Positions 25,425-40,769 of a stretch of DNA of 64,000 nucleotides are shown in pieces. Position 1 is the first letter of the stretch; every line of letters begins with the position of its first letter. The notes below the pieces were generated by a model that had not been told where the DNA came from, searched no databases, and saw only the letters and a list, made by a program, of their open reading frames with translations. Source of the stretch: Parcubacteria group bacterium GW2011_GWA1_40_21 (GTDB lineage: Bacteria; Patescibacteriota; Minisyncoccia; Phycocordibacterales; GWA1-40-21); the NCBI GenBank assembly GCA_000996205.1, contig LBYO01000004.1:4051-68050 (forward strand), written 5' to 3'. A program made the translations under genes and the position numbers.

Positions 25425-26783
25425 TTATTTTAAGCTGTTTTTTATGAAACTGGATAATTCACCTGTCTTTACTCTCTCCTGTTTGCCTGTATCCCTGTCG
25501 CGGACAGTGACGGTGTCATTTTCCAAGGTGTCAAAGTCTATCGTCACGCAAAACGGCGTGCCGATTTCGTCTTGGCGGCGGTAGCGTTTACCGATGTTGC
25601 CGTTGTCGTCAAAAACTATCGGGCGGATTTCTTTTTTTAATTCACTGAAAATAATTTGAGCTTTTTTCACCAGCTCCGGTTTATTTTTAAGCAGAGGGAA
25701 AACAGCAACTTTCACAGGCGCAACTGTTGGTTTGAATTTCAGGAAAATTCTTTTTTCACCGCCCATTTCATCTTCCGTGTAAACCTCGCAAAGAATAGCG
25801 AGAATCATTCTATCCAAACCGAATGAAGGCTCAATGCAGTGAGGAACAAATCTATCTTTCGTTTCTTCATCATAATATGATAAGTCAGCGCCACTCTTCC
25901 CTATATGAGCAGACAAATCAAAATCAGTGCGATACGCCAAACCAAGAAGCTCTTTTCTGCCGAAAGGATAATCAAATTCAAAATCTATGGTTCTTTTGGA
26001 ATAATGCGCTCGGTCTTCCGCCGAGACTTCAAGCTCATGGATGCTGTCTTTGTCAAGTCCGATATCCGCAAGCCAATCTAAAATCTCCGTTCTAAAACTT
26101 TCAAAATATTTTTCCCACTCGCTTTCTCTCGTGAAATATTCTATTTCCATCTGCTCAAATTCTCTAGCGCGGAAGAGAAAATCTCTTGGAGAGATTTCAT
26201 TCCTGAAAGCCTTGCCGATTTGAGCCATACCGAACGGCAATCTGGGATGGAAAGAATCCATCACATTCTTGAAATTAACAAACATTCCTTGCGCAGTTTC
26301 CGGACGGAGATATGACACGGAACCTTTGTCCTCCACTGGACCGACATTGGTCTTAAACATCATATTGAACATAATCGGAGAAAACCAATTTTCTGCACTA
26401 CCACACTTTTCACATTTTGGAGGAACAAAAACATAAGAGATGGAAGGCATTCCCTTTTTCATATTCTGAAAATGATCCGGTGGAAAGCCTATTTGATCAG
26501 CCCTGTATTGAGAGTGGCATTTACTACACTCAACAAGCGGGTCGGAAAATCCCGCGATGTGCCCCGACGCTTCCCAAACTTTTGCATTCATAAGAATCGC
26601 CGCGTCTATTCCATACATATCGTCTCGCTCTTCAACAAACTTTTTCCACCACGAATTTTTTATGTTATTTTTGAGCGACAAACCAAAAGACCCGTAGTCC
26701 CATGCTCCGGAAAGACCGCCGTAAATTTCCGAGCCGGGATAAATAAAGCCGCGCCTTTTGCAAAGCGATATTATTTTTTCCAT
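25425..26783 (-). CDS. glyQS: glycyl-tRNA synthetase (alpha2 type)
   Basis: 'MEKIISLCKRRGFIYPGSEIYGGLSGAWDYGSFG' is the canonical dimeric GlyRS N-terminus, and the class II motifs are present. The longest ORF extends to 26825. Confidence 0.85.
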   Translation of the reverse strand: MEKIISLCKRRGFIYPGSEIYGGLSGAWDYGSFGLSLKNNIKNSWWKKFVEERDDMYGIDAAILMNAKVWEASGHIAGFSDPLVECSKCHSQYRADQIGFPPDHFQNMKKGMPSISYVFVPPKCEKCGSAENWFSPIMFNMMFKTNVGPVEDKGSVSYLRPETAQGMFVNFKNVMDSFHPRLPFGMAQIGKAFRNEISPRDFLFRAREFEQMEIEYFTRESEWEKYFESFRTEILDWLADIGLDKDSIHELEVSAEDRAHYSKRTIDFEFDYPFGRKELLGLAYRTDFDLSAHIGKSGADLSYYDEETKDRFVPHCIEPSFGLDRMILAILCEVYTEDEMGGEKRIFLKFKPTVAPVKVAVFPLLKNKPELVKKAQIIFSELKKEIRPIVFDDNGNIGKRYRRQDEIGTPFCVTIDFDTLENDTVTVRDRDTGKQERVKTGELSSFIKNSLK

Positions 26784-26852
26784 TTTTCCGCCTTCGGCGG
26801 TCTCTTTTTTCTTTTTGATTTCCATAATTGTTGAATAATAGACAAAAGAAGG

Positions 26853-28793
26853 CTATTTCACAACCTTATCTTCTGAATATTTGAAGTCAGGATCGGTCTT
26901 TAATGTAGTTGTAAGGGAAGGTCGCGTTTCTCCAACTGATGCGGATGTAAAGCTGTCCGTTCCGCTTAAGACTGATTCGTTTAGAATTACGGGGCTCTGT
27001 CCCTCATGACTCAAGCTCGGGAGGAAGGAAATTTGGAAAGATGCTTCTCTCGGCGGACCTTCAATACCCGCGCCGGCTTCTATGTCTCCCGCGTCCCAGA
27101 CCACTTCCGCCCTCGCGGAATTAAATGAAATATTTTCACTGGCGGGATTTGTCTGCGAAAGCCATTTGACATAAAGAGGAAGACTTGCGGCGACTTTGGC
27201 GTCTTTGATCTTGCTTGAAGTGTTTGTTATCGTCCAGATCACCGTATAAGTCGTTTCACTTTCGGCTTTTGGAGGCATTGGTCCGGTGTTCTCAAATGGT
27301 CCGCTCCAGTGAATAGCGCGGGAAGACAGCCTTGCGTCAGTCGCTATTTTGATTATTCTTGTCGCGGAATACAAAACTTCCTGAGGGACATTGTCTCCTT
27401 CAAGCCTTTTGCCTCTCGCGACTATATCCAGAGAAATTGAAGGCTCAATCATAAGCGAGGATCCGCCGATATGAGAACTCAGACTCCCGAATGAAAAGTT
27501 TAAATTCCCGCTCTCGCCCGGGGACATTGACCCTAAAGCCGGATTATTCGTCTTGTCAAAGACGATGGTATTGTCAACCGACCTGTAAAAACCCCGCTCG
27601 GCGGAAACCGATGATTTGTTCAGGGTGTCGCCTTTAAACTTTATCTGAATCTCCGCGTCTTTAATCGGGGTCGCGAGATTGTTTTTCCAAGCGACATCGG
27701 CTCTTATGATTTTACTGCTCTCGGAAACAAAATCATTGGCAGTGTTGCCGTCAAGGGCGATTTGAATGCCGATAAAAGGCTTCTTGATTGAAACTTCCGC
27801 GAGAGAAGTGACAATGGGCGTGGCTATCACCTTCTCATCTTTGTCGCTTGAAATTCCCGTCGTAAATCTTAGAATCTTATTCTCTCCGTCCTGACCCTGC
27901 ATCTTGCCGTAAATTTTAACGGTTTTTTTCTGTCCGGCGGACAAATCTCCTATGGACCAAAGATTATTGTTCGTGTCAAGCGATTTTTCGCTTGAATCAA
28001 CAAAGACGAAACCGAACGGATATTCCGCCTTGAGCAAAAGATTTCTGATCGGATTGGAAGAATTTGAAACAACAGTAACGGAAAAATCAACCGCCTGATT
28101 GGCATTTATTTCTTTAAGGCCGGACACTTCAATGCTCACCGGCGAGTCGCTTATGACGACTTCATAAGTTTTTTCTTTATAAAAAATCGCGCTTGAACCG
28201 GAAATGCGATACTCCACGGTCACCTTTATTTCTTTTTTGCTTTTTTCTTCGCCGAAAAGTATGGCCTCAACTCTTTTTACGGCGCTCTCTCCTTGGGGTA
28301 TATCGCCGAGCTCATCCCTCGTCCTCTTGAGCTCTGTCTTTAAATCATCTATGGCGCGCGCTCCCTCCGGATACTCAACGCGGAGATCCGCCGCTTTGAG
28401 GTCGGTTTTATTGTTGTTGTCAACTTTTATATCAAGGGAGATTTTCTCCCCGCCGGAAACCGAAACTGGTCCCGTTATGGAAATTTCTATATTGTTAGCC
28501 GAAATTGTGTTTGACCCCCAATAAAATCTGTAAAAAGCCACGCCGGAAGCAATTAGAAAAAATAAAATTGAAACAATAAAAAATTTCATCACAAAAGTCA
28601 TTCCTTTCTTCTCCTTGATGAAGATTGGCTTTTTTTCAAGACTTTCTTCACCTTCGTGAGACCATTCGCCCGCCACATCATAAGATTCGCTTTTCAAGTG
28701 GCGGCTTTTCCTGTCCGTTCTCGCGCGATTATCTCTTGAATAAAGTCCTCTTTTTAACTTTTCAATACCGCTATTGTTATCTTGGGATTCCAT
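26853..28793 (-). CDS. hypothetical membrane-anchored protein with repeated beta-rich extracellular modules
   Basis: 646 aa. It has a charged N-terminal cytoplasmic tail and one TM (FVMKFFIVSILFFLIASGVAFY), followed by a long extracytoplasmic region. Confidence 0.45.
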   Translation of the reverse strand: MESQDNNSGIEKLKRGLYSRDNRARTDRKSRHLKSESYDVAGEWSHEGEESLEKKPIFIKEKKGMTFVMKFFIVSILFFLIASGVAFYRFYWGSNTISANNIEISITGPVSVSGGEKISLDIKVDNNNKTDLKAADLRVEYPEGARAIDDLKTELKRTRDELGDIPQGESAVKRVEAILFGEEKSKKEIKVTVEYRISGSSAIFYKEKTYEVVISDSPVSIEVSGLKEINANQAVDFSVTVVSNSSNPIRNLLLKAEYPFGFVFVDSSEKSLDTNNNLWSIGDLSAGQKKTVKIYGKMQGQDGENKILRFTTGISSDKDEKVIATPIVTSLAEVSIKKPFIGIQIALDGNTANDFVSESSKIIRADVAWKNNLATPIKDAEIQIKFKGDTLNKSSVSAERGFYRSVDNTIVFDKTNNPALGSMSPGESGNLNFSFGSLSSHIGGSSLMIEPSISLDIVARGKRLEGDNVPQEVLYSATRIIKIATDARLSSRAIHWSGPFENTGPMPPKAESETTYTVIWTITNTSSKIKDAKVAASLPLYVKWLSQTNPASENISFNSARAEVVWDAGDIEAGAGIEGPPREASFQISFLPSLSHEGQSPVILNESVLSGTDSFTSASVGETRPSLTTTLKTDPDFKYSEDKVVK

Positions 28794-29094
28794 AAAAAAA
28801 ATTATACCACAAGAATTAAGTTGTAGGGACTAGTTTATAGTTTTTAGGTTATAGTGATTAGGTTGCAGGTGAAGAAGATGGCATCAATTTCCAATTCCTA
28901 ATTTCTAATTGATCTAATCAAATCCCAATCAACAATCAACAATAAATAAGACTTAATTTAATTAACTTTTAATTGGTCATTTTCTTAGTTGGTTTTTGAA
29001 GTTTGATTAGAAATTAGATCAATTAGGAATTAGTAGTTTGATAGGCCACTCTTCCTTTCTTCCCTACAACCTACCTAAAACCTACAACCTAGAA

Positions 29095-29688
29095 TTACAA
29101 CTGCGTTTCTTTTAGGGCTTTGTTTATTTGGAGGACGGCATCGCGACCGAGAGGGCTCATTTTAGAAACAAAATCTTTTGTCCAAACGGCGGAAGAAAGA
29201 AATTCCTTGAAATCGGCGGATTCTGCCATATATCCGAGACTATGCAGAATTCTCATAATCAGCAAGTATTCGCAGTTCCTCAAGAGGCTCTCATCAAGAT
29301 TTTCCTTTTCCAAAAACTCGCAAGCGGATGAGACATGGCTGAAAAGAATCTCGTTTTTCTCCTCGCCTCGGACAAGACGCAAAAGAAGCGCGAATGTCTT
29401 GGCCAACAATTCAAACTTATCACGACTTCCGTTCAAAGAACGGCGCAAATCATTTTCTTTTATCGCTCCGACGATTCTCCAAATATATTTTCCTTTAACC
29501 AGAGAAATTCTTGAATAAGAATAATCTTGAAGGCTATAGCGAAGTTTTGACTTAAGAAGCCTCACCCCTTGCGCCGTCGCGCCAATCATTCCAAAATCCT
29601 TGGTGAATATGGAAAAATATTTGTTCGCCTCGCCAACACTCTCCCCGCTCAACACAAAACCTTCAGTGTGATATATGTGATGCGTCAT
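29095..29688 (-). CDS. recO: DNA repair protein RecO-like (short)
   Basis: The N-terminal OB-fold pattern 'TEGFVLSGESVGEANKYFSIFTKDFGMIGATAQGVRLLKSKL...LVKGKYIWRI' resembles RecO. Confidence 0.5.
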   Translation of the reverse strand: MTHHIYHTEGFVLSGESVGEANKYFSIFTKDFGMIGATAQGVRLLKSKLRYSLQDYSYSRISLVKGKYIWRIVGAIKENDLRRSLNGSRDKFELLAKTFALLLRLVRGEEKNEILFSHVSSACEFLEKENLDESLLRNCEYLLIMRILHSLGYMAESADFKEFLSSAVWTKDFVSKMSPLGRDAVLQINKALKETQL

Positions 29689-29864
29689 TTGTTAGAATTT
29701 ATCGTAGCATTTCGCCAAAATCTCTTTTCTTCAGAATTATCCCCTCCGTCAAATAAATTTGATGCGCCATAAAATTTACTCGTAAATATCATGCGTGCCG
29801 ATGTCTGTGAAAATAACATTGCCGTCTTTTAAAACCGCGAAGAAGGCACTATCTCCATATTTTT

Positions 29865-30152
29865 TTATTTATGAAGATTAGAATATTCTTTCTCCAAAAA
29901 CGATTCTAATTTTTCCGTTTTTCCTTTTTTGTGTTCCTTTAATGCTTCTTCAACTCGCTTGTCCAAACTTCTGGCTTTTTCCCCTTTCAAGAAACAAACA
30001 GGGAGACTTTTAGCTTTCATGCCCTCATACTCTTTTCGCGAAATAACCACCAAATCTTCGTTTTTTGTTTTTATTAAATTTTTAGGGATAGTTATGGTAT
30101 TCATTATTTTTATGGTATCAACAACACCAAAAAAGGTCAACGTCATTGCCAA
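29865..30152 (-). CDS. Phd/YefM-like antitoxin-like small protein
   Basis: 'MNTITIPKNLIK...DLVVISRKEYEGMKA' resembles the antitoxin beta-alpha fold motif. A 30-codon RelE/YafQ-like C-terminal remnant (…VLKDGNVIFTDIGTHDIYE*) lies just downstream on the same strand at about 29745-29835. Confidence 0.35.
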   Translation of the reverse strand: MAMTLTFFGVVDTIKIMNTITIPKNLIKTKNEDLVVISRKEYEGMKAKSLPVCFLKGEKARSLDKRVEEALKEHKKGKTEKLESFLEKEYSNLHK

Positions 30153-31156
30153 TTTAAAAAATATAGAATTTCTTCTTTATCGGCCGTATTCCTTAATGAT
30201 CGATTCATACTCCGAGATAATGGCGACTGGTAAGTTTTTTTGAAGGCTGAGAGTAAAAATTTTAACTGATGTATTCGCAAATCAAATTTATCATCCGGAA
30301 ATTGAGCAAGGTACTTTGCCCCAATTTTTATCATTTTTATCATTTCTTCGTCTCTCGGTTTTTCATCTCTCTCAAAAGATGTCTCATTGTTTTGTTCTTC
30401 TTCCGCAATATCGTGATAATACAAAGCGGGCGCATAAATAAGATTCCACAATTCTGCTACTGTGAAATTGAAATTGGTTTCTGAATGCTACTGTGAAATT
30501 GAAATTGGTTTCTGAAGCGTTTATCATTTCCAGGACTGTTTTATTGGTCATCCAATATGTCTCTGCTTGAATTGAAGCGATTTCTTTTCCAACACGACTG
30601 TCAACTGACTGAATCCCTAAATCTTGATATTCCTTTTTAAGCAACTTCTTTGTTCCCGAGAAGATGAACGCTGAACCAGTCCACCGTATATCATACGCTG
30701 AAGGCCTTTTAGCACACCCTCTGGGTGCGGAACTTTTTCCGCAAGCAATAAGCCAACCTGACCAATAGAACCCATACCGGTCAAAACTTCATTAATATCA
30801 TTTCTGTTTTTAAAAATATCTTCAAATGGCACCCCAATCTTTGGATTGTCAAAAAAATCGTCTATCCAATGCGCGCCGTAAACAAGATACGATTTGGCGA
30901 TAATTTCGCGCGGGTTGTCTTTTGAGGTGATTCCCACAATAAATGCCTGCACTTCTATATCTGAATAAACATGGACATCGCTAGTCTCTATGCCAAGTTT
31001 ATTTAAATCAAGCATTTTGAGATCGCTGATAAAATTATTTTCTCCTTCTCTCACGAAATGCAAAATATTTTCCCAGTTTGGTACTTCGTCATATAGCGCT
31101 TCCAGTTTTGGAGCTAATTTTTTTTCAAAATTATTATTTTCCATCATTTCTGGCAT
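30143..31156 (-). pseudogene. disrupted HD-domain protein gene (three overlapping ORF fragments)
   Basis: ORFs 30617..31156, 30384..30644 and 30143..30451 overlap in different frames. The fragments contain 'HFVREG…' and 'ALYYHDIAEEE' (HD-motif-like). A perfect 31-bp tandem duplication at 30455-30516 shifts the frame. Confidence 0.5.
30455..30516. repeat. perfect tandem duplication, 2 x 31 bp (tgctactgtgaaattgaaattggtttctgaa)
   Basis: Two identical adjacent 31-mers. 31 is not a multiple of 3, so the second copy frameshifts the enclosing ORF. Confidence 0.9.
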
Positions 31157-31188
31157 AGAAATTTGTTTTTGATAAATTAAATAAAATT

Positions 31189-34100
31189 TTACGCTTCTAT
31201 CTTGGCTTTTATCACAAAGCCGTCGGTGGAGATTTCCTGTCCGTCTTCCACAACGGCGTTGAATTCCAGTTTTTCTATGCCTGCTGATTTTTTGATTTCC
31301 TCGGCGAATTTTTCCATAAATTCTCTGGCATGGATTTCAGCTTGAACATACAAAATTATTTTCTGGCTGGTATTAAGACCGGCTTTCTTTCTCAAATCTT
31401 GAAGACCGCGAATCAAATCTCTCAAACTACCCTCTTCTTTGAGCTCGGGCGATATTTCCGTATCCAACTCAACCTCGCCTAAAATTTTCTCATCAAAAAT
31501 AATCTCTTTGACATTCAGCTCATCTTTGATCAAATCCAACATTTCTTTCTCCACTTTATGGACTTTATAACTTTTGACTTTTAACTTTTTTAACGCCTGT
31601 CTCACTTTTATATTCGCCTTTGCTCTAGCCTCCAACCCCAAAGAAACAATTCTCCTAACCTCCTCCATATCCTCAATTAAACTTTCGACTTTCGACTTTC
31701 GACTTTCGACTACTTTTACCCATTCTTCCAAATGAACGCTCTCTTTATCCTTTCCTTTGCCGTTCAATTTTTGGTACAAATATTCCGCCAAAAAAGGAGT
31801 GAATGGCGCCATAATTTTTGACAGTTCGGTCAAAACATACTTCATCGTGGCAAGCGCGAATTGTTTGTCTTTATAGTCATCTCCCTTTACCCTTTCTCTT
31901 GATCTGCGGACATACCAAGTGGAAAATTCATTGATAAAATCTTTGATCGGGCGGCCAGATTTGACGGTATTGTAATTTTCAAGCCCCTCCGTCACTTCAT
32001 TTATAAGAATATTGAGCTTGGCGAGAATCCATCCATCAAGAACATTTTCACTGTCTTCGCATTTCGTCTTGCCGTCATACTCGCCTTGATAAAGTTCAAA
32101 AAAATTGAATGTGTTAAGAAGAATATTTATCACTTTATTGTGAGCGTCCTTGATTTCCTCATCCGCAAATTTTATGTCTTCCGCCTGCATTATCGGACTG
32201 GTCATAAGATAATAACGCAAAGCATCCGCTCCGTACTTGTCCATATTCAGCATCGGGTCGGTGTAATTGCCTTTGGACTTGGACATTTTGCTCCCGTCTT
32301 CGGCTAAAATTGTTCCGGTGGTAATGACATTTTTGAAACTTGCATCGTCAAATAAGATGCCCGAAATGGTGTGCATATAGTAAAACCATGTTCTTGTTTG
32401 AGCCACATATTCGGTCACAAAATCACCCGACGGAAAACGGCTGCCGAGTTCTTTTTCATTTTCAAACGGATAATGATATTCGGCAAACGGCATCGCACCA
32501 GATTCAAACCATCCGTCAATAACTTCCGGCACTCTTTTCGTTTCGCCGAGACAGTCTTCACCACTGCAAACCAGATCAACTTCATCTATATAAGGCCTGT
32601 GCAAATCAAGCTCGTAATTTTCATTGTGCGGAAGCGGAACGAAGTCCAGTTTTCTTATCTCCGCGTTTTCAATAAAAAATTCTCCGTTTCCCCGCATAAG
32701 AAGCGCCTCTTTCGCATTCATCCCGAATGATCCGGCGAACAAAAGCCATGCAGGAGAGTCGTGAGTAACAATCAAAATATTTTTATTGTTGTGCCGTTTT
32801 TCAATGTCGTAAATAAAATCGGCGGTTCTTTTTTTAATATCGGAGTAATTTTCCCCCTGCGGAGTATTTTTTATAAATCGTTCTTCAAACGAAGTAAAAT
32901 AGTCGGTGTATGCCGATATAGATTTTCCATCAAATGTTCCCGCGTTCAATTCTCCGACTCTATTTTCAAGAATAATGTCAGATGGCTCAATTTGGAGCTT
33001 CCGTGCGATAATTTCCGCAGTTTCTTTTGTCCTCACAAAAGGCGAGCTGAAGATGATGTCAATTTTTTCAACTATCAAATCGTCCCCCGCTTTCGCCGCC
33101 TGCTCTCTGCCTTTCTCCGTCAAATGACTTGAATTTTTAGAATCGGAACTTATGAAAGCTTTTACATTGTTATCCGCTTCTCCGTGTCGAACCACAAAAT
33201 ATTTATTGCCGGATTTTTTTGTTTTTTTCTTTAATTCATCCACAGAACCGACAAGTTCAATTTTTCCGCATTTCTCGCATTTCCAAATCGGCAGAGGTGA
33301 GGCCCAATAGCGATTGCGGGAAATATTCCAATCCGGAGCGCTTTCTATATTATTCAGAAATCTGCCGTGTTTTAGGTGGTCTGGAAACCAATTTATTTTT
33401 TCATTAAGCTCCTTCAGGCGATTTTTCACTTTTTGGATGTTGATAAACCACGAAGAAAGCGCGCTGTAATAAAGCGGCGTTTCGCAACGATGGCAATGCG
33501 GATAGGAGTGAGTATGCGCCTGTTTGGCGAAAATCAATCCTCTTTTTTCCAAATCTTCTTTGATGTATTTCTCTCCTTTCTTCAAATAAAAACCTTGGAT
33601 AAATTCCGGCGCTTCTTTGTTGAAATGACCGCTTTGGTCTAAAAGCGGAATTGTCGGCAAATCGTATTTTATGCCGATATTATAATCGTCTTCCCCATGC
33701 ATCGGAGCGATGTGGACGATGCCGGTTCCGTCTTCCGTGGTCACGAAATCAGCCGAAACGACATAATGCGATTTTTTATTGAAATTTTTTACCGCCGGAA
33801 TTTCATAAAGTGGTTCGTATTCAAGTCCGACAAGTTTTTCACCGGAAAATTCACTTATTATTTCATAAGGTTCCGACAAAATACCGAGTCTTTCTTTCGC
33901 CAATATTAGATTTTCTCTGTCTTCAGTTTTTTCCGCCTGAGGCGGATCCGCCTCAGGCGGAAGATTTAATCCGTCAGCTGACGGATTAGATTTTAGATTA
34001 AGCTTGCAATAAATCAGCTCCTGATTTATTGCAAGCGCAACATTGCCCGACAATGTCCACGGCGTAGTCGTCCAAGCCAAAAGATAAGTATTTTCCGGCA

Positions 34101-34773
34101 AGTTGTGTTTTTTCGGATTTTTAACTTTAAACTTCACTATCACCGCTTCTTCCGTCACCGTTTTATAACTGTTATCCATCGCCACTTCCGCTTTGGCCAA
34201 AGGAGTCTCGCATCTCGGGCAATACATCAAAACCTTCCGACCTTCATAGAGCAAATCTTTTTTGTGGATTTCTTTTAACGCCCACCAAACGCTTTCAATG
34301 TAAGAATTGTCCATCGTCATATAGGAATTATCAAATTCCACCCAGCGGCCGATTCTCTCCACATAATTTTTCCAGTCGTGGGCAGTTTCTAAAACAGCGG
34401 AACGGCAAGTCTCGTTGAACTTTCCAACCCCCATCGCTTCAATTTCTTTTTTGCTCTTGAGCCCGAGCCTTTTTTCAATCATATTTTCAATCGGCAAGCC
34501 GTGGCAATCCCAGCCCCACCTTCGGCGAACATGATACCCCCGCATTGTCTTATAGCGAGGAATCACATCCTTAGCAACGGAAGAAAGCAAACTGCCGTAA
34601 TGAGGCAGACCTGTCGCAAAAGGCGGTCCATCATAAAAGACAAACTCGCCTTTCGGTGAATCCTTTGCCAAAGTTTTTTCAAAAATTTTATTTTCTTTCC
34701 AAAAACGGAGAGTTTCTTCCTCCCTTTTAGCCGTTTCGCTTTTGTTGTCTTTTTCCTTGTCGTTATTGGTCAT
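31189..34773 (-). CDS. ileS: isoleucyl-tRNA synthetase with an embedded histidine-phosphatase (PGAM-like) domain
   Basis: Carries 'PPFATGLPHYGSLL' (HIGH), 'WTTTPWTLSGN' (editing CP1), 'KMSKSKGN' and a zinc knuckle 'IWKCEKCGK'. Residues ~516-722 are 'YFVVRHGEADNN…FSSPFVRTKETAEII…ENRVGELNAGTFDG…ILIVTHDSPAWLL', a complete histidine-phosphatase core placed before 'LDLHRPYIDE'. Confidence 0.9.
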   Translation of the reverse strand: MTNNDKEKDNKSETAKREEETLRFWKENKIFEKTLAKDSPKGEFVFYDGPPFATGLPHYGSLLSSVAKDVIPRYKTMRGYHVRRRWGWDCHGLPIENMIEKRLGLKSKKEIEAMGVGKFNETCRSAVLETAHDWKNYVERIGRWVEFDNSYMTMDNSYIESVWWALKEIHKKDLLYEGRKVLMYCPRCETPLAKAEVAMDNSYKTVTEEAVIVKFKVKNPKKHNLPENTYLLAWTTTPWTLSGNVALAINQELIYCKLNLKSNPSADGLNLPPEADPPQAEKTEDRENLILAKERLGILSEPYEIISEFSGEKLVGLEYEPLYEIPAVKNFNKKSHYVVSADFVTTEDGTGIVHIAPMHGEDDYNIGIKYDLPTIPLLDQSGHFNKEAPEFIQGFYLKKGEKYIKEDLEKRGLIFAKQAHTHSYPHCHRCETPLYYSALSSWFINIQKVKNRLKELNEKINWFPDHLKHGRFLNNIESAPDWNISRNRYWASPLPIWKCEKCGKIELVGSVDELKKKTKKSGNKYFVVRHGEADNNVKAFISSDSKNSSHLTEKGREQAAKAGDDLIVEKIDIIFSSPFVRTKETAEIIARKLQIEPSDIILENRVGELNAGTFDGKSISAYTDYFTSFEERFIKNTPQGENYSDIKKRTADFIYDIEKRHNNKNILIVTHDSPAWLLFAGSFGMNAKEALLMRGNGEFFIENAEIRKLDFVPLPHNENYELDLHRPYIDEVDLVCSGEDCLGETKRVPEVIDGWFESGAMPFAEYHYPFENEKELGSRFPSGDFVTEYVAQTRTWFYYMHTISGILFDDASFKNVITTGTILAEDGSKMSKSKGNYTDPMLNMDKYGADALRYYLMTSPIMQAEDIKFADEEIKDAHNKVINILLNTFNFFELYQGEYDGKTKCEDSENVLDGWILAKLNILINEVTEGLENYNTVKSGRPIKDFINEFSTWYVRRSRERVKGDDYKDKQFALATMKYVLTELSKIMAPFTPFLAEYLYQKLNGKGKDKESVHLEEWVKVVESRKSKVESLIEDMEEVRRIVSLGLEARAKANIKVRQALKKLKVKSYKVHKVEKEMLDLIKDELNVKEIIFDEKILGEVELDTEISPELKEEGSLRDLIRGLQDLRKKAGLNTSQKIILYVQAEIHAREFMEKFAEEIKKSAGIEKLEFNAVVEDGQEISTDGFVIKAKIEA
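33933..34036. repeat. three consecutive perfect palindromes inside ileS coding sequence
   Basis: ccgcctgaggcggatccgcctcaggcgg (33933-33960), aatccgtcagctgacggatt (33968-33987) and gcttgcaataaatcagctcctgatttattgcaagc (34002-34036). Together they encode …INQELIYCKLNLKSNPSADGLNLPPEADPPQAEKTEDR…. Confidence 0.7.
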
Positions 34774-34829
34774 ATTTATTCAGAGAATACCACAGTTTAT
34801 CATTTTTCCATCGCTTTTCAAAAAAATTT

Positions 34830-34860
34830 CCCCACTTGGAAACTTAGTTTCCAAGTGGGG
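34830..34860. terminator. 31-bp perfect palindrome ccccacttggaaacttagtttccaagtgggg + A/T runs
   Basis: Identical to the element at 6283-6311. Followed by a second hairpin (aacgcattggt…accaatgcgtt) at 34869-34917, upstream of ileS. Confidence 0.5.
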
Positions 34861-34940
34861 AAAAGAAAAACGCATTGGTCTCTTCAGGATATTTAATCCT
34901 AAAAAAACCAATGCGTTGATTTGTCCGTAAAAAATACTGC

Positions 34941-35315
34941 TCACAAGATCACCATCGGATGACCCCTTAATGCAGATTCGATGCCGGACGGAGAACTGTT
35001 CGCCGCTTCATTATTCGCTACTTCAGTGACTATTCTATCAATAATCTCTAGAGGGGTTTCTTTCGGCGCGCTGATCGGCTCCTCTGTAAGCTCCTCCACT
35101 TTTACCCTAAGCCCTAAGTTTCGCGCTAACCGATTAAGCGCGTTTGGATTAAATATTTCAGGAATTTCACTTTGAGAAATTTTCTTCTCAAGACAAAACC
35201 CTCTAACAAAATTCTCGATTCCCACAATCAACTGCAAAGACAGTCCATCTATCTTATCTCCAGAAAAAGGCATGTTTTCCACTCCAATAAATTTTTGAAT
35301 CAAAGGCGGCCACAA
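34941..35315 (-). CDS. hypothetical protein
   Basis: 124-aa ORF with no recognised motifs. An alternative start MPFSGD is possible. Confidence 0.35.
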   Translation of the reverse strand: MWPPLIQKFIGVENMPFSGDKIDGLSLQLIVGIENFVRGFCLEKKISQSEIPEIFNPNALNRLARNLGLRVKVEELTEEPISAPKETPLEIIDRIVTEVANNEAANSSPSGIESALRGHPMVIL

Positions 35316-35489
35316 GCCGTCTTATGTTATGAACTAAATTTTTCTTCTGAAAGGATACCTTGCCCAAACAAAAAGTCAACGATTAAGAAGGCGGGTAGCT
35401 TGTAGCTGTTTAACTTTTTAGGAAGAAAGTCTGGCGCTCCTATTCTTATTCTTACCTAAAAAGCTACAAGCTAATAAGCTTCCCCAAAA

Positions 35490-37256
35490 CTACATCCTCT
35501 CCGGAACTTGAATTCCCAGAAGATTGAGGCCGTTTTTCATTGTCGCGGCGAAAGAGGCGGTGAGAGCAACCTTGTAAGGAGAAATTTCGTCGTTAGTATC
35601 CACTATCTTGTGTTTGGCGTAAAAACTGTTGAATGATCCGGCAAGTTCAATCAAGTAAGAAGCGATATAGTGAGGAGAATATTCCTTCCCCGCCCTCTCC
35701 ACGATTTCAGGAAAGCGATAAAGCAATCTTTCCAATTCTGATGTTTCGGTGACGACTTTTTTTGCGGAAGCCTTTATCCCCTCTCCTTTGGCTTTCTCCA
35801 AAACAGATTTCGCTCTCGCGTAAGAATATTGAAGATACGGTCCGGAATCTCCCTCAAAAGAAATTGATTTGTCAAAATCATATACTATGTCGCTTCCAGT
35901 CGTATGTTTTAGTATTGAATATTTTATCGCTCCGATTGACACTTTTTCAATAATTTCTTTTTCCATCTCTTCGTTGTAATTTCTGTCTTTGATTTTTTCC
36001 TCCACGAGTTTTTGAGTATCTGTCATAAGCGACTCCGCCGTGATAACATCGCCCGTCCTTGATGACATTTTACCGCTTGGAAGCCGAAGCATTCCGTGAG
36101 AAATATGCTTTGTTTTTTCCGCCAAGTCCGGAAAAACAATTTCCATCGCCTTCAGCAAAACCTTAAAATAGTCATTTATCTCATTACCTGTCACGACTAT
36201 TGAAACATCGTATTGATAATGTTCATCGTATTTTATTTTCGCCAGTCCGAGCTCTTTGGCTTCGTAAGTCGGCAACCCTTCCGAATTTATGAAAACCCTC
36301 GTGTGCAATCCGTATTTCTCTCCTTTAAACACGATAGCGCCGTCACTTTTCTCAAAAACGCCATTCTTCAAATTTTCCTCCACTATCTTCTTGCCAAAAT
36401 CCCCTGTCTCTCTTTCAAAGAAAATGAAATCAAATTCCGTGCCCAGCTTTTTGTAAATTTCTCCAAAATGCTTAAGGGATACATCCTTACCCCAATCATA
36501 CAGTTTATTTATCTCATCATCGTTTCTATCATAAATTTTTTTGTTTATCACCTCAAGCTCTCCGCTCTCAATTGCTTTGTTTATTTCATCAACCCTTCTT
36601 TTAAAATCATCAATTCCGCTAAGTGATGAGAACGAACTCGAACCTAAAGAGTAAGACATCGCCAAAAATTTAACCTTGTTTGTCAACATAGCTTTATCAT
36701 CTGGCATTAAATCTCTTAGAGTTTTCATACCCAGGACAGCTTTTGCCACATGAAGCCCTACATCGCCTTGATAGCACGCCCTTTTCACTTCCGCGCCGTG
36801 AAATCCAATGATTCTGGACAGAGATTCTCCGATGGTGTTGCTCATCAAATGTCCGATGTGAAATTCCTTGAAAGGATTCGGGTCTGTGTATTCAATCATT
36901 ACTTTCCGCCCTTTAAGCGATTCGTTCGCGCCAAAACTATCGCCTTCCGTAATCGCCTCGCCTACACTTTCCGCGAAAAATTCCTTTGATAGAAAAAAGT
37001 TAATAAAGCCGGCGCCGGCGACTTCCGCTTTTTCAATTTCTTTTATTTCGCGCTTCCTTATTTCCTCCGCTATCTTTTCCGCCAAATCTATCGGTTTCGT
37101 TTTTAATTCTTTGGCGTAAGCCAAAGCCGCATTGGAAGAATAATCGCCGAAGTTTAAATCAGTCGGGTGTTCCAAATGAATATCATCCGCCGTGATGGAT
37201 GGCATCTTTAGAGCTTCCTGTATTGTATTTTTAAGTTTTTCTTGAATCATAATCAT
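35490..37256 (-). CDS. argS: arginyl-tRNA synthetase
   Basis: 'FHIGHLMSNTIG' (HIGH), the N-terminal Add-1-like domain, the C-terminal DALR anticodon-binding domain 'SPHYIASYLIELAGSFNSFY' and the end '…LGIQVPERM'. Confidence 0.9.
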   Translation of the reverse strand: MIMIQEKLKNTIQEALKMPSITADDIHLEHPTDLNFGDYSSNAALAYAKELKTKPIDLAEKIAEEIRKREIKEIEKAEVAGAGFINFFLSKEFFAESVGEAITEGDSFGANESLKGRKVMIEYTDPNPFKEFHIGHLMSNTIGESLSRIIGFHGAEVKRACYQGDVGLHVAKAVLGMKTLRDLMPDDKAMLTNKVKFLAMSYSLGSSSFSSLSGIDDFKRRVDEINKAIESGELEVINKKIYDRNDDEINKLYDWGKDVSLKHFGEIYKKLGTEFDFIFFERETGDFGKKIVEENLKNGVFEKSDGAIVFKGEKYGLHTRVFINSEGLPTYEAKELGLAKIKYDEHYQYDVSIVVTGNEINDYFKVLLKAMEIVFPDLAEKTKHISHGMLRLPSGKMSSRTGDVITAESLMTDTQKLVEEKIKDRNYNEEMEKEIIEKVSIGAIKYSILKHTTGSDIVYDFDKSISFEGDSGPYLQYSYARAKSVLEKAKGEGIKASAKKVVTETSELERLLYRFPEIVERAGKEYSPHYIASYLIELAGSFNSFYAKHKIVDTNDEISPYKVALTASFAATMKNGLNLLGIQVPERM

Positions 37257-39182: not shown

Positions 39183-40769
39183 ATGGAATCCAGCGATAAC
39201 TTTCTAAGACCTTACAAAACAAAGAATAAAAGAAATAATTACTTTCCAATGACACAAACAACCCAACTCTACCAGCCGGAAAAATATAAAGTTTATTTAG
39301 GAAAAGGCCAGTCAATCGGCTTCTGCACCGTTTGGAATGAACCTGAATCCGTTTTTAATAAGTCAAAAATAATAAGGGATAATTCGGTGATGCTCGGCAC
39401 TCTTTACAGCCGACAAGGCGTCAGTATTATTTTGCGGAACCTCGCGCTAAATCCCAAAATCAGAACCGTCTACCTCTGGGGGAACGGGACGCTTTCAAAT
39501 TCCAAGTTCGGAATTGCCGGAAGATCAACCTTGACGAACCTCTGGCAAAAAGGACTTTCAGACGACGGCACTATCGACGGAACTCAGTTTAAAATTGAAA
39601 AAGAAATTGACGCCAAAACAGTCAAGAAAATAATAAATAATGTTAAGCTCGCGGATGTGAGCGACAAATCCATTGAAGATGTTGAAAAACTATTAATTTC
39701 ATCGGGCGAGAAAGCCGGTCCTTATATGAAGCCTGTGGAATTTCCAGAAACAGAGCGCGAGCAGATAGACATTTTCCCCTCCGAAGAAATCGGCTGGCTT
39801 ATGAGAGGCAAGACGATCACCGAAGCGTGGCTCAAATTGGTTGAACGCATAATGAGATACGGAACGGTCAAAGGCACGCAGTACGGCTATCAGCAAAGAG
39901 AGCTTGTAGGCGCGACATGGGTCTCAAGCGAACCTGATCCCGAAAATCCGGACTTTTCTCTGGCGGGAAATTGGCCTCACAGCCTCAAGGAGCTTGCGGG
40001 GGCGACGCCGGAATCAATCAAAGAATATTTCAACATATTTCTTTCGGCAACGATGCCGACAGGCGTCTCTTACACCTATGGCAACAGATTGATGGCTTAT
40101 CCGAATAAAAACGGAGAAAAGCCAATAGACCAGATTGAGGAAATTTTAAAAAAGAATCTAATTGACTCACCGGATTCAAGACGCGCCGTGGCGACAACGA
40201 TGCACCCGTCAACTGACAAAGATAGCAAAGAGCCTCCTTGCATAACTCAAATCCAAGCGATTCAAAGCAGAGGAAGACTCCACTTTTTGGTGACGGCCAG
40301 AAGCCACGACATATTCAAATCGGCGATTCCAAACGCTTTCGGCCTGCGCACACTTCAGAAAAAGGTGGCTCGCGAGCTCGGCTTTGAGCTTGGAGAACTT
40401 CAAATAACATCACAGTCGGCGCACATCTACGAGCAAGATTGGGACCAAGCGTTAAAACTTTCCAGATGCTTTTTCTGGGAAAGAAAACCGGAACTCATCT
40501 TTGACCCGAACAAACACGCCGATCCGCGCGGCAATATGATAATCACGGTGAAAAGCAAAGAAATAAATGTTGAATTTCAAAGTCCTTCCGGCGCCAGTCT
40601 GATGACGCTTCAGGGGGAAAGCGCCAAAGAGCTGTCGGCGCAAATCGCTCATCTTGAACTTTTGAGCCTCTTTAGCCACATTATGGATGTGGCGATGGAG
40701 CTTCAGAAAGCCGAAACGGCGATGAAAAATAAACTGCCCTACAACCAAGACCGCCCTCTTGTTTTTTAG
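39183..40769 (+). CDS. thymidylate synthase (ThyA-family) with ~210-aa N-terminal extension of unknown function
   Basis: C-terminal ~310 aa: 'WLKLVERIMRYGTVKGTQYG' (ThyA N-terminal helix), 'PPCITQIQAIQ' (catalytic Cys), 'ARSHDIFKSAIPNAFG' (RS-D-N) and 'SAHIYE'. The N-terminal 210 aa have no recognised motifs. Confidence 0.6.
   Translation: MESSDNFLRPYKTKNKRNNYFPMTQTTQLYQPEKYKVYLGKGQSIGFCTVWNEPESVFNKSKIIRDNSVMLGTLYSRQGVSIILRNLALNPKIRTVYLWGNGTLSNSKFGIAGRSTLTNLWQKGLSDDGTIDGTQFKIEKEIDAKTVKKIINNVKLADVSDKSIEDVEKLLISSGEKAGPYMKPVEFPETEREQIDIFPSEEIGWLMRGKTITEAWLKLVERIMRYGTVKGTQYGYQQRELVGATWVSSEPDPENPDFSLAGNWPHSLKELAGATPESIKEYFNIFLSATMPTGVSYTYGNRLMAYPNKNGEKPIDQIEEILKKNLIDSPDSRRAVATTMHPSTDKDSKEPPCITQIQAIQSRGRLHFLVTARSHDIFKSAIPNAFGLRTLQKKVARELGFELGELQITSQSAHIYEQDWDQALKLSRCFFWERKPELIFDPNKHADPRGNMIITVKSKEINVEFQSPSGASLMTLQGESAKELSAQIAHLELLSLFSHIMDVAMELQKAETAMKNKLPYNQDRPLVF

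Follow-up and report, generated by a model that had tools for sequence, protein, structure and literature searches.

We analysed a 64,000-nucleotide stretch of contig LBYO01000004.1 from the genome of Parcubacteria group bacterium GW2011_GWA1_40_21 (hereafter the window, with positions counted from its first letter), and focused on ileS, the gene for isoleucyl-tRNA synthetase (IleRS), which appears to carry a complete histidine phosphatase domain in the middle of its coding sequence. The gene occupies 31189–34773 on the minus strand as one stop-free open reading frame (ORF) of 1194 amino acids (aa), which agrees with the continuous frame reported in the initial annotation of this DNA, made from the sequence alone. 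The NCBIfam ileS model TIGR00392 matched the protein with 836.9 bits (cut-off 621.4) in two stretches that flank the insert; similarly, Pfam assigned tRNA-synt_1 (E = 1e-119) split by His_Phos_1 (PF00300), followed by Anticodon_1 and DUF5915. A profile search of the 761-kb genome (97.7% complete) reached the ileS cut-off at this locus only. The full-length AlphaFold2 (AF2) model of the protein (mean predicted local distance difference test score, pLDDT, 90.1; predicted template-modelling score, pTM, 0.84) superposed on type-2 IleRS structures, with a template-modelling (TM) score of 0.93 by 1ILE. These results indicate that the gene encodes a sole-copy type-2 IleRS of the working type; the host synthetase looks functional, and the 1194-aa protein is predicted to serve as the cell's IleRS.

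The signature motifs of the synthetase (Table 1) had been described as intact in the initial annotation. This was correct for the WTTTPWT motif of the CP1 editing domain and for KMSKS, whereas the HIGH signature is present as the variant HYGS, a form shared by 8 of 74 aligned homologues, the rest carrying HYGH (most) or GxHH. A swapped form of HIGH, G-I/M-H-H, occurs in about 15 of the 74 homologues, and resembles the altered motif tied to mupirocin hyper-resistance in type-2 IleRS. We also considered the mupirocin-resistance enzymes MupA/MupB as an identity for the window protein, and rejected it at about 710 bits against an NCBIfam exception cut-off of 1900, a score that makes it a type-2 relative only. 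Within the CP1 editing domain, residues 263–283 (33925–33987, minus strand) form a 21-residue stretch rich in Pro, Ala, Asp and Glu, which is predicted to be disordered (pLDDT <50) and is missing from Thermus IleRS. The summed depth of metagenome contigs rises about 30-fold at 33829–34068, the conserved region of the editing motif (WTTTPWT), probably through cross-recruitment of IleRS genes of other organisms in the same samples.

The inserted domain

Residues 526–691 matched Pfam His_Phos_1 with an E value of 9.9e-32 (110.6 bits, cut-off 21.7), in line with the histidine phosphatase domain that had been recognised from motifs, and each of the four catalytic motifs named at that time is present (RHG at 529–531, R581, E608 and H671). 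Among 138 embedded homologues, R529, H530, R581 and H671 are conserved at 100%, E608 at 99% and N536 at 96%, while the domains are otherwise just about 35–50% identical; the same catalytic residues are invariant or at least 90% conserved in the alignment of 74 full-length proteins. Whether the domain folds on its own had been left to structure prediction. Modelled alone (AF2; pLDDT 97.1, pTM 0.93), it is predicted to fold independently, and the top Foldseek matches of the model were all PGAM-family phosphatases (TM 0.70–0.78), the closest solved relatives by sequence and fold being Hydrogenobacter iPSP1, PhoE, GpgP and CobC. To judge from its sequence, the insert is a complete PhoE/PspA-like histidine phosphatase domain of branch 1 of the superfamily, with every catalytic residue evidently kept under strong purifying selection, and is apparently an active enzyme.

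The fold could in principle have been kept as a structural, phosphate-sensing or tRNA-binding module without turnover, as pseudo-enzymes are common among the domains appended to synthetases. We regard this as very improbable, considering the 99–100% conservation of all five catalytic residues (two His, two Arg and one Glu) in domains that otherwise diverge so far, and the mildly acidic character of the domain (median isoelectric point, pI, 6.3), although charge is uninformative on RNA binding.

None of the characterised family identities was reached. Scores for SixA (33–37 bits, cut-off 74.5), PspA/iPSP1 (66–70, cut-off 350) and CobC (70–74, cut-off 162.9) were all below the NCBIfam equivalog cut-offs, and those for cofactor-dependent phosphoglycerate mutase were low as well (dPGM_arch, 87–90 bits against 225; pgm_1, 25 against 81.7). 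The local contexts E608-L-N-A and H671-D-S are not of the mutase type, for which E-R-H-Y-G and H-G-N are specific. Moreover, the genome encodes a separate 507-aa phosphoglycerate mutase of the metalloenzyme type (iPGM), together with enolase and phosphoglycerate kinase, and a separate family-I pyrophosphatase (178.6 bits); since these genes fill both roles, the inserted domain is taken to be neither the glycolytic mutase nor the cell's pyrophosphatase. The insert is the only PF00300 match in the genome.

Insertion site and integrity of the locus

Alignment against Thermus IleRS (1ILE) by phmmer paired residues 291–520 of the window protein with Thermus residues 259–482, and residues 722–1054 with 488–820, such that about 200 residues stand in place of about 6. 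This confirmed the insertion point before the 'HRPY.D' region that the initial annotation had proposed. Its coordinates, 32608–33228, correspond to residues 516–722; we placed the insert at residues 521–712 (about 192 residues, with no counterpart in Thermus, Priestia or yeast IleRS), because the host's own PLP...HRPY segment restarts at residue 713. The CP3 subdomain of Candida IleRS spans residues 473–534, that of Thermus carries a zinc motif, and CP3 topology varies among IleRSs (PMC7191050). As the junction in the window protein aligns to Candida residue ~498, inside the published CP3, the insert is assigned to the CP3 subdomain, between both halves of the zinc knuckle, whose cysteines are missing in many of the aligned homologues that bear the insert. 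By this alignment the site is a peripheral, variable surface loop outside the Rossmann core proper, and the earlier description of a phosphatase fused into the catalytic core of the synthetase is not sustained.

An assembly chimera or mis-joined contig would produce the same picture. A 988-nucleotide contig of groundwater run X1 covers 32464–33451, including both junctions, with zero differences, and contigs that overlap it, from X3 (a further sample) and X5 (a separate study), bridge both junctions too; thus contigs from three samples and two studies are continuous and free of differences across the insert, which answers the doubt raised in the initial annotation as to whether the insert is real. 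The same architecture recurs in at least hundreds of independent assemblies, and no break in GC content is apparent along the insert. We consider the chance of an artefact negligible.

Table 1 Features of ileS and its upstream neighbour in the window (residue numbers refer to the 1194-aa protein).
Feature	Window position	Strand	Evidence or remark
ileS ORF	31189..34773	-	1194 aa; TIGR00392 836.9 bits; only IleRS in genome
HIGH-type signature, HYGS, residues 58–61	34591..34602	-	Sequence alignment
WTTTPWT motif of CP1 editing domain, residues 234–240	34054..34074	-	Sequence alignment
CEKC (C499, C502), first half of CP3 zinc knuckle, just before insert	33268..33279	-	Alignment
Inserted segment, residues 521–712	32638..33213	-	N-terminal junction KKSGNKYF; C-terminal strand, then host PLPHN...HRPY
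His_Phos_1 match, residues 526–691	32701..33198	-	Pfam E 9.9e-32; fold model; Foldseek
RHG motif, R529-H530-G531 (H530, predicted nucleophile)	33181..33189	-	R and H invariant in 138 embedded domains and 74 full-length proteins
R581, predicted second phosphate-binding Arg	33031..33033	-	100% conserved
E608, presumed proton donor	32950..32952	-	99% conserved in embedded domains
H671, predicted distal catalytic His	32761..32763	-	100% conserved
Return linker PLPHNENYEL, residues 713–722	32608..32637	-	Equivalent to Thermus PLPEPFDP; conserved in embedded forms
C736...C741 (CxxxxC), second half of CP3 zinc knuckle, after insert	32551..32568	-	Alignment
KMSKS signature, residues 829–833	32275..32289	-	Sequence alignment
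Arginyl-tRNA synthetase (ArgRS), upstream neighbour of ileS	35490..37256	-	Free phosphatase lies between ArgRS and IleRS in insert-less relatives

Distribution among Patescibacteria

We searched for the insert within proteins of full-length size (E ≤ 0.001); the prevalence counts given here are from genome samples, with open frames as stand-ins for genes. The search returned 2592 matching proteins, and the best 120 of the 2592 all combined PF00133 with PF00300, that is, IleRS with the same insert. Hits with an organism name were all from Patescibacteria (Parcubacteria, Paceibacterota, Wolfebacteria, Nomurabacteria, Taylorbacteria, Nealsonbacteria and Uhrbacteria). The embedded form was found in all seven genomes sampled from the same order, in frames of 1156–1187 aa. 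Among 141 genomes sampled from the same class, about 95 had the embedded form, about 9 had a free-standing relative only, and 37 had no match at E ≤ 1e-15. The embedded form is present in other classes of the phylum too, and in 174 of the 401 sampled Patescibacteria genomes the insert matched nothing at E ≤ 1e-5. These counts indicate that the architecture is common in Patescibacteria.

According to the initial annotation, this was not a known IleRS architecture. The statement holds for the literature and for curation: we found no description of a phosphatase-in-IleRS architecture in the searchable literature, their NCBI name is 'class I tRNA ligase family protein', and NCBIfam provides an exception model for the GNAT-bearing form of IleRS and none for the phosphatase-bearing one. 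It does not hold in the sense of rarity, as at least the best 120 of 2592 matches are IleRS with the insert, and the architecture was already visible in precomputed Pfam annotations.

Gene neighbourhood and origin of the insert

In family f156 (three genera), the gene order is ArgRS, a His_Phos gene of 184–189 aa, and IleRS without the insert. Successive stop and start codons in this array overlap or lie 1 nucleotide apart, and the free phosphatase is 35–44% identical to the window's insert. The overall order in f156 (ArgRS, IleRS, RecO, a large protein, a class II synthetase) is the same as in the window, where ArgRS, IleRS, a RecO-like protein, a large surface-type protein (DUF11) and a class II synthetase (tRNA-synt_2b with HGTP_anticodon) span 25425–37256 on the minus strand; this order is also kept in distant relatives (L041–L043, L048). 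Family f16 has the phosphatase gene 0.8–2.6 kb upstream of an insert-less ileS, and genome G112, of another class, has both an embedded copy and an upstream free-standing one. Given that some relatives still show the operon state, we infer that the insert derives from a phosphatase gene that immediately preceded ileS, in an operon of the order ArgRS, phosphatase, IleRS.

A remnant of such a gene in the ArgRS-IleRS gap was sought by tblastn over 34700–35600 of the window, and nothing was found below E 0.38. The slot of the relatives' free-standing phosphatase gene is occupied by a 124-aa ORF (34941–35315, minus strand) with no Pfam match and no similarity to the phosphatase; a 179-aa ORF (30617–31156, minus strand), also with no Pfam match, flanks ileS. 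Tight linkage to ileS was observed in families f16 and f156 and, in G112, G171 and G325, next to the embedded copies, whereas in other classes no ileS was found within about 7 kb of any of 20 free-standing copies, two of which adjoin the gene for valyl-tRNA synthetase (ValRS). A FastTree phylogeny of 215 phosphatase domains, in which about 5 of the 'free' rows are IleRS fragments, was too poorly resolved to count insertion events; with the insert columns removed, a FastTree phylogeny of IleRS tentatively nests sequences that lack the insert within clades that carry it, in at least two positions. Complex prediction for the free f156 phosphatase with its own IleRS (residues 1–715) gave a score of 0.00, which speaks neither for nor against binding.

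Further along the window, 39183–40769 (plus strand) encodes a 528-aa protein with a partial thymidylate-synthase match and a C-terminal PterinBD-DUF4346 domain, adjoining a thymidylate kinase and a dCMP/cytidine deaminase-type gene.

The ancestral ArgRS/His_Phos/IleRS adjacency offers an opportunity for an account without function in translation: a general metabolic phosphatase, for example one acting on phosphoserine or sugar phosphates and mechanistically unconnected with IleRS, was copied from a neighbouring gene into a tolerant loop, after which the free copy was lost and the embedded one was left as the sole provider of the activity, by a neutral ratchet. The insert being the sole PF00300 domain in the genome, the variable and peripheral nature of CP3, and the metabolic phosphatases among the closest solved relatives all fit this course of events, which we take as the main rival to functional coupling.

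Joining to other tRNA enzymes

We then compared the places and partners at which the same phosphatase clade is found. IleRS accepts the domain at no fewer than three loops. Site A lies in CP3, site B around residues 771–778, and site C around residue 905, after the stem-contact fold and before the anticodon-binding domain. Some proteins have two phosphatases in tandem at site A, and GNAT domains are present in some IleRS. One ValRS contains four tandem phosphatase copies, and in another lineage a free-standing copy lies directly upstream of ValRS. Alanyl-tRNA synthetase (AlaRS), a class II enzyme of unrelated fold, has the phosphatase inside its catalytic domain in five of five sampled f56 genomes. 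Two protein clusters are ArgRS with a C-terminal phosphatase fusion, with ileS absent from the locus, and three clusters are TsaC/Sua5 (YrdC domain) with a C-terminal phosphatase, adjoining the CCA-adding enzyme, TGT, a queuosine-salvage gene and TruD.

Since the joinings to IleRS, ValRS, AlaRS, ArgRS and TsaC/Sua5 appear to be independent of each other, the substrate of the clade would belong to the tRNA-charging or tRNA-modification machinery rather than to central metabolism. A single ancestral adjacency cannot explain the AlaRS and ValRS insertions and the TsaC fusions; it is for this reason that we favour an active phosphatase functionally coupled to aminoacyl-tRNA synthetases, at a probability of roughly 0.55 for this core claim. 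The window protein would then be a bifunctional enzyme in which the phosphatase provides the synthetase with a second, tethered active site, and the recurrent joining points to an undescribed link between the phosphatase and tRNA charging.

The same observations bear on the neutral capture of a metabolic phosphatase. The AlaRS insertions (5/5 f56 genomes) and the four-copy ValRS lie at other loci and are hard to fit to one adjacency; the TsaC/Sua5 fusions stand within a tRNA-modification gene cluster, IleRS itself has three separate insertion sites, and the 174 of 401 genomes lacking a match indicate no universal housekeeping need. The ArgRS-fusion lineage, on the other hand, retains the phosphatase at that locus despite the absent ileS, a point in favour of neutral capture. 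Taken together, we judge neutral capture somewhat unlikely.

Several additional forms were observed in this survey. Two IleRS of about 1420 aa (L018, from G147, and P0242) have GNAT or His_Phos at a second site and a further His_Phos between the stem-contact fold and the anticodon-binding domain. P0214 (1066 aa, truncated by the contig end) has an IS200-like Y1 transposase domain in CP1 (residues 340–461), in addition to His_Phos and GNAT; IleRS in these bacteria seems unusually insertion-tolerant. In other classes, three free His_Phos relatives (L030, L033, L039) start with '...YFVHGTT...' and so lack the Arg of RHG, one of them near a ValRS gene.

Possible substrates of the phosphatase

The initial annotation had listed several candidate roles for the phosphatase without choosing among them, and this caution was warranted. 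As a more specific form of functional coupling, we tentatively propose that the clade is a dedicated, unrecognised part of the patescibacterial aminoacylation apparatus, convergently recruited into IleRS, ValRS, AlaRS, ArgRS and TsaC and acting on tRNA or on the synthetase. Possible actions are the unblocking of 3'-(pyro)phosphorylated CCA ends, against tRNA-targeting toxins, and the reversal of inhibitory phosphorylation of the synthetase. For the first, toxic small alarmone synthetases pyrophosphorylate tRNA at its 3' CCA end, some of them tRNA-specifically (bioRxiv 10.1101/2021.04.30.441581; 10.1101/2024.07.05.602228). The inserted phosphatase would remove the phosphate or pyrophosphate that blocks the tRNA 3' end, and the unblocked, bound tRNA could then be charged.

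Several points weigh against an action on tRNA. The domain's closest relatives of solved structure act on small molecules (phosphoserine, glucosyl-3-phosphoglycerate and alpha-ribazole phosphatases); the mildly acidic domain shows no sign of its own of RNA binding; and no known PGAM-type enzyme acts on RNA ends. The CCA-adding enzyme encoded here already has an HD domain, which in the E. coli enzyme supplies a tRNA-end phosphatase. No RelA/SpoT-type synthetase domain was found in the genome (97.7% complete), so that any 3'-end block would need a source outside the cell. As to coupling in general, the joinings to IleRS and ArgRS may in part reflect the ancestral neighbourhood of the genes and not function. 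Considering the likeness to small-molecule enzymes, the acidity, the HD domain of the CCA enzyme and the missing RelA/SpoT, we hold a phosphate-blocked tRNA 3' end to be our lead guess for the substrate, and a doubtful one.

Two other variants of functional coupling were weighed. In the first, the phosphatase would hydrolyse a product common to its partner enzymes, either inorganic pyrophosphate (PPi) or AMP or a nucleotide phosphate, and so pull adenylate formation forward locally. By established enzymology, adenylate formation with release of PPi is a step of IleRS, ValRS, AlaRS, ArgRS and TsaC/Sua5 alike, and in the TsaC fusions the phosphatase stands C-terminal to the YrdC domain, the position of the SUA5 domain in Sua5 proteins. 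The His_Phos domain of mycobacterial MutT1 cleaves a terminal anhydride phosphate, and the 1194-aa protein matches the MutT1 family weakly. Nevertheless, the cell has its own family-I pyrophosphatase, PPi diffuses so fast that tethering gains little, no known branch-1 histidine phosphatase acts as an inorganic pyrophosphatase, and AMP breakdown makes poor sense for a nucleotide scavenger; we therefore find this variant unlikely.

In the second variant, a protein phosphatase would strip an inhibitory phosphate, such as one placed by a HipA-like toxin kinase, off the host synthetase, acting in cis as an embedded domain and in trans as the product of an adjacent gene. The superfamily includes the protein phosphatases SixA, PGAM5 and Sts-1, and HipA-family kinases inactivate GltX, TrpS and LysS by phosphorylation of an active-site loop; action in cis would explain why selection favoured tethering to several synthetases that are not related, in different loops close to the catalytic domain. 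We consider this improbable all the same, as no Hanks-type kinase was found in the genome (HipA was not searched for), the SixA model remained at less than half of its cut-off score, TsaC is not a known kinase target, and there is no known phosphosite.

A search for Sua5/TsaC itself (PF01300) gave no match in the 97.7%-complete genome (G000), whereas it was present in 14 of 14 control genomes; the N6-threonylcarbamoyladenosine (t6A) pathway in G000 may be missing or highly divergent.

Significance

Aminoacyl-tRNA synthetases rank with the most highly conserved enzymes, and bacterial ones rarely contain a second catalytic domain. In the present case the sole IleRS of a 0.76-Mb genome harbours an apparently active phosphatase, whose clade has also been joined, independently, to at least four further tRNA-related enzymes in Patescibacteria, a very large, mostly uncultured group whose genomes are minimal. 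That such small genomes retain the domain and have repeatedly recruited it makes an important role likely. If the phosphatase acts on tRNA or on the synthetase, the architecture would represent a new repair or control step in translation, with quality control coupled to charging; if it acts on a metabolite, the protein would be a clear case of a synthetase serving as scaffold for an unrelated enzyme. In practice, under-annotation as 'class I tRNA ligase family protein' means that ileS can be missed in metabolic reconstructions. We rate the IleRS-phosphatase form as new and a synthetase with an added domain as of a known kind, the interest lying in the convergent recruitment.

Comparison with known systems

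The best matches of the window protein by sequence and fold are the type-2 enzymes of Thermus thermophilus (1ILE) and Priestia megaterium (IleRS2; 8C8U/8C8V) (E = 7e-210; TM 0.93 by 1ILE), with which it shares the domain order, the CP1 editing motif and KMSKS, as well as two zinc knuckles as in Thermus. It differs from them by the ~192-residue enzyme domain in the CP3 loop, HYGS in place of HIGH, and the 21-residue disordered stretch in CP1.

NCBIfam NF040702 ('ileS_w_GNAT') provides a precedent with an N-acetyltransferase domain inside IleRS, and some Patescibacteria IleRS have both GNAT and His_Phos domains. The window protein, in contrast, has no GNAT Pfam match and scored 309.7 bits against the NF040702 cut-off of 1999; in the GNAT-bearing relative L018, GNAT is at site B, not in the CP3 loop.

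The PhoE/iPSP1 (PspA)/GpgP/CobC group (PDB 1H2E, 4IJ5, 4QIH, 6NRU) has the same catalytic set of RHG, Arg, Glu and His at just 17–24% identity, and its members are free-standing, whereas the present domain is embedded in tRNA enzymes or operonic with them. Branch-1 domains joined to a nucleic-acid or nucleotide enzyme are found in the mycobacterial RNase H/acid phosphatase (NF005567) and the MutT1 Nudix-His_Phos protein (NF052459); these are end-to-end fusions with other partners, and the window protein matched both models weakly, far below their cut-offs.

Finally, eukaryotic synthetases carry appended GST-like, WHEP, EMAPII and UNE domains, which are mostly non-catalytic and terminal. They likewise use the synthetase as a scaffold, with one module recurring across several synthetases; unlike these appendages, the domain described here is bacterial, lies mid-chain, and is predicted to be catalytic.

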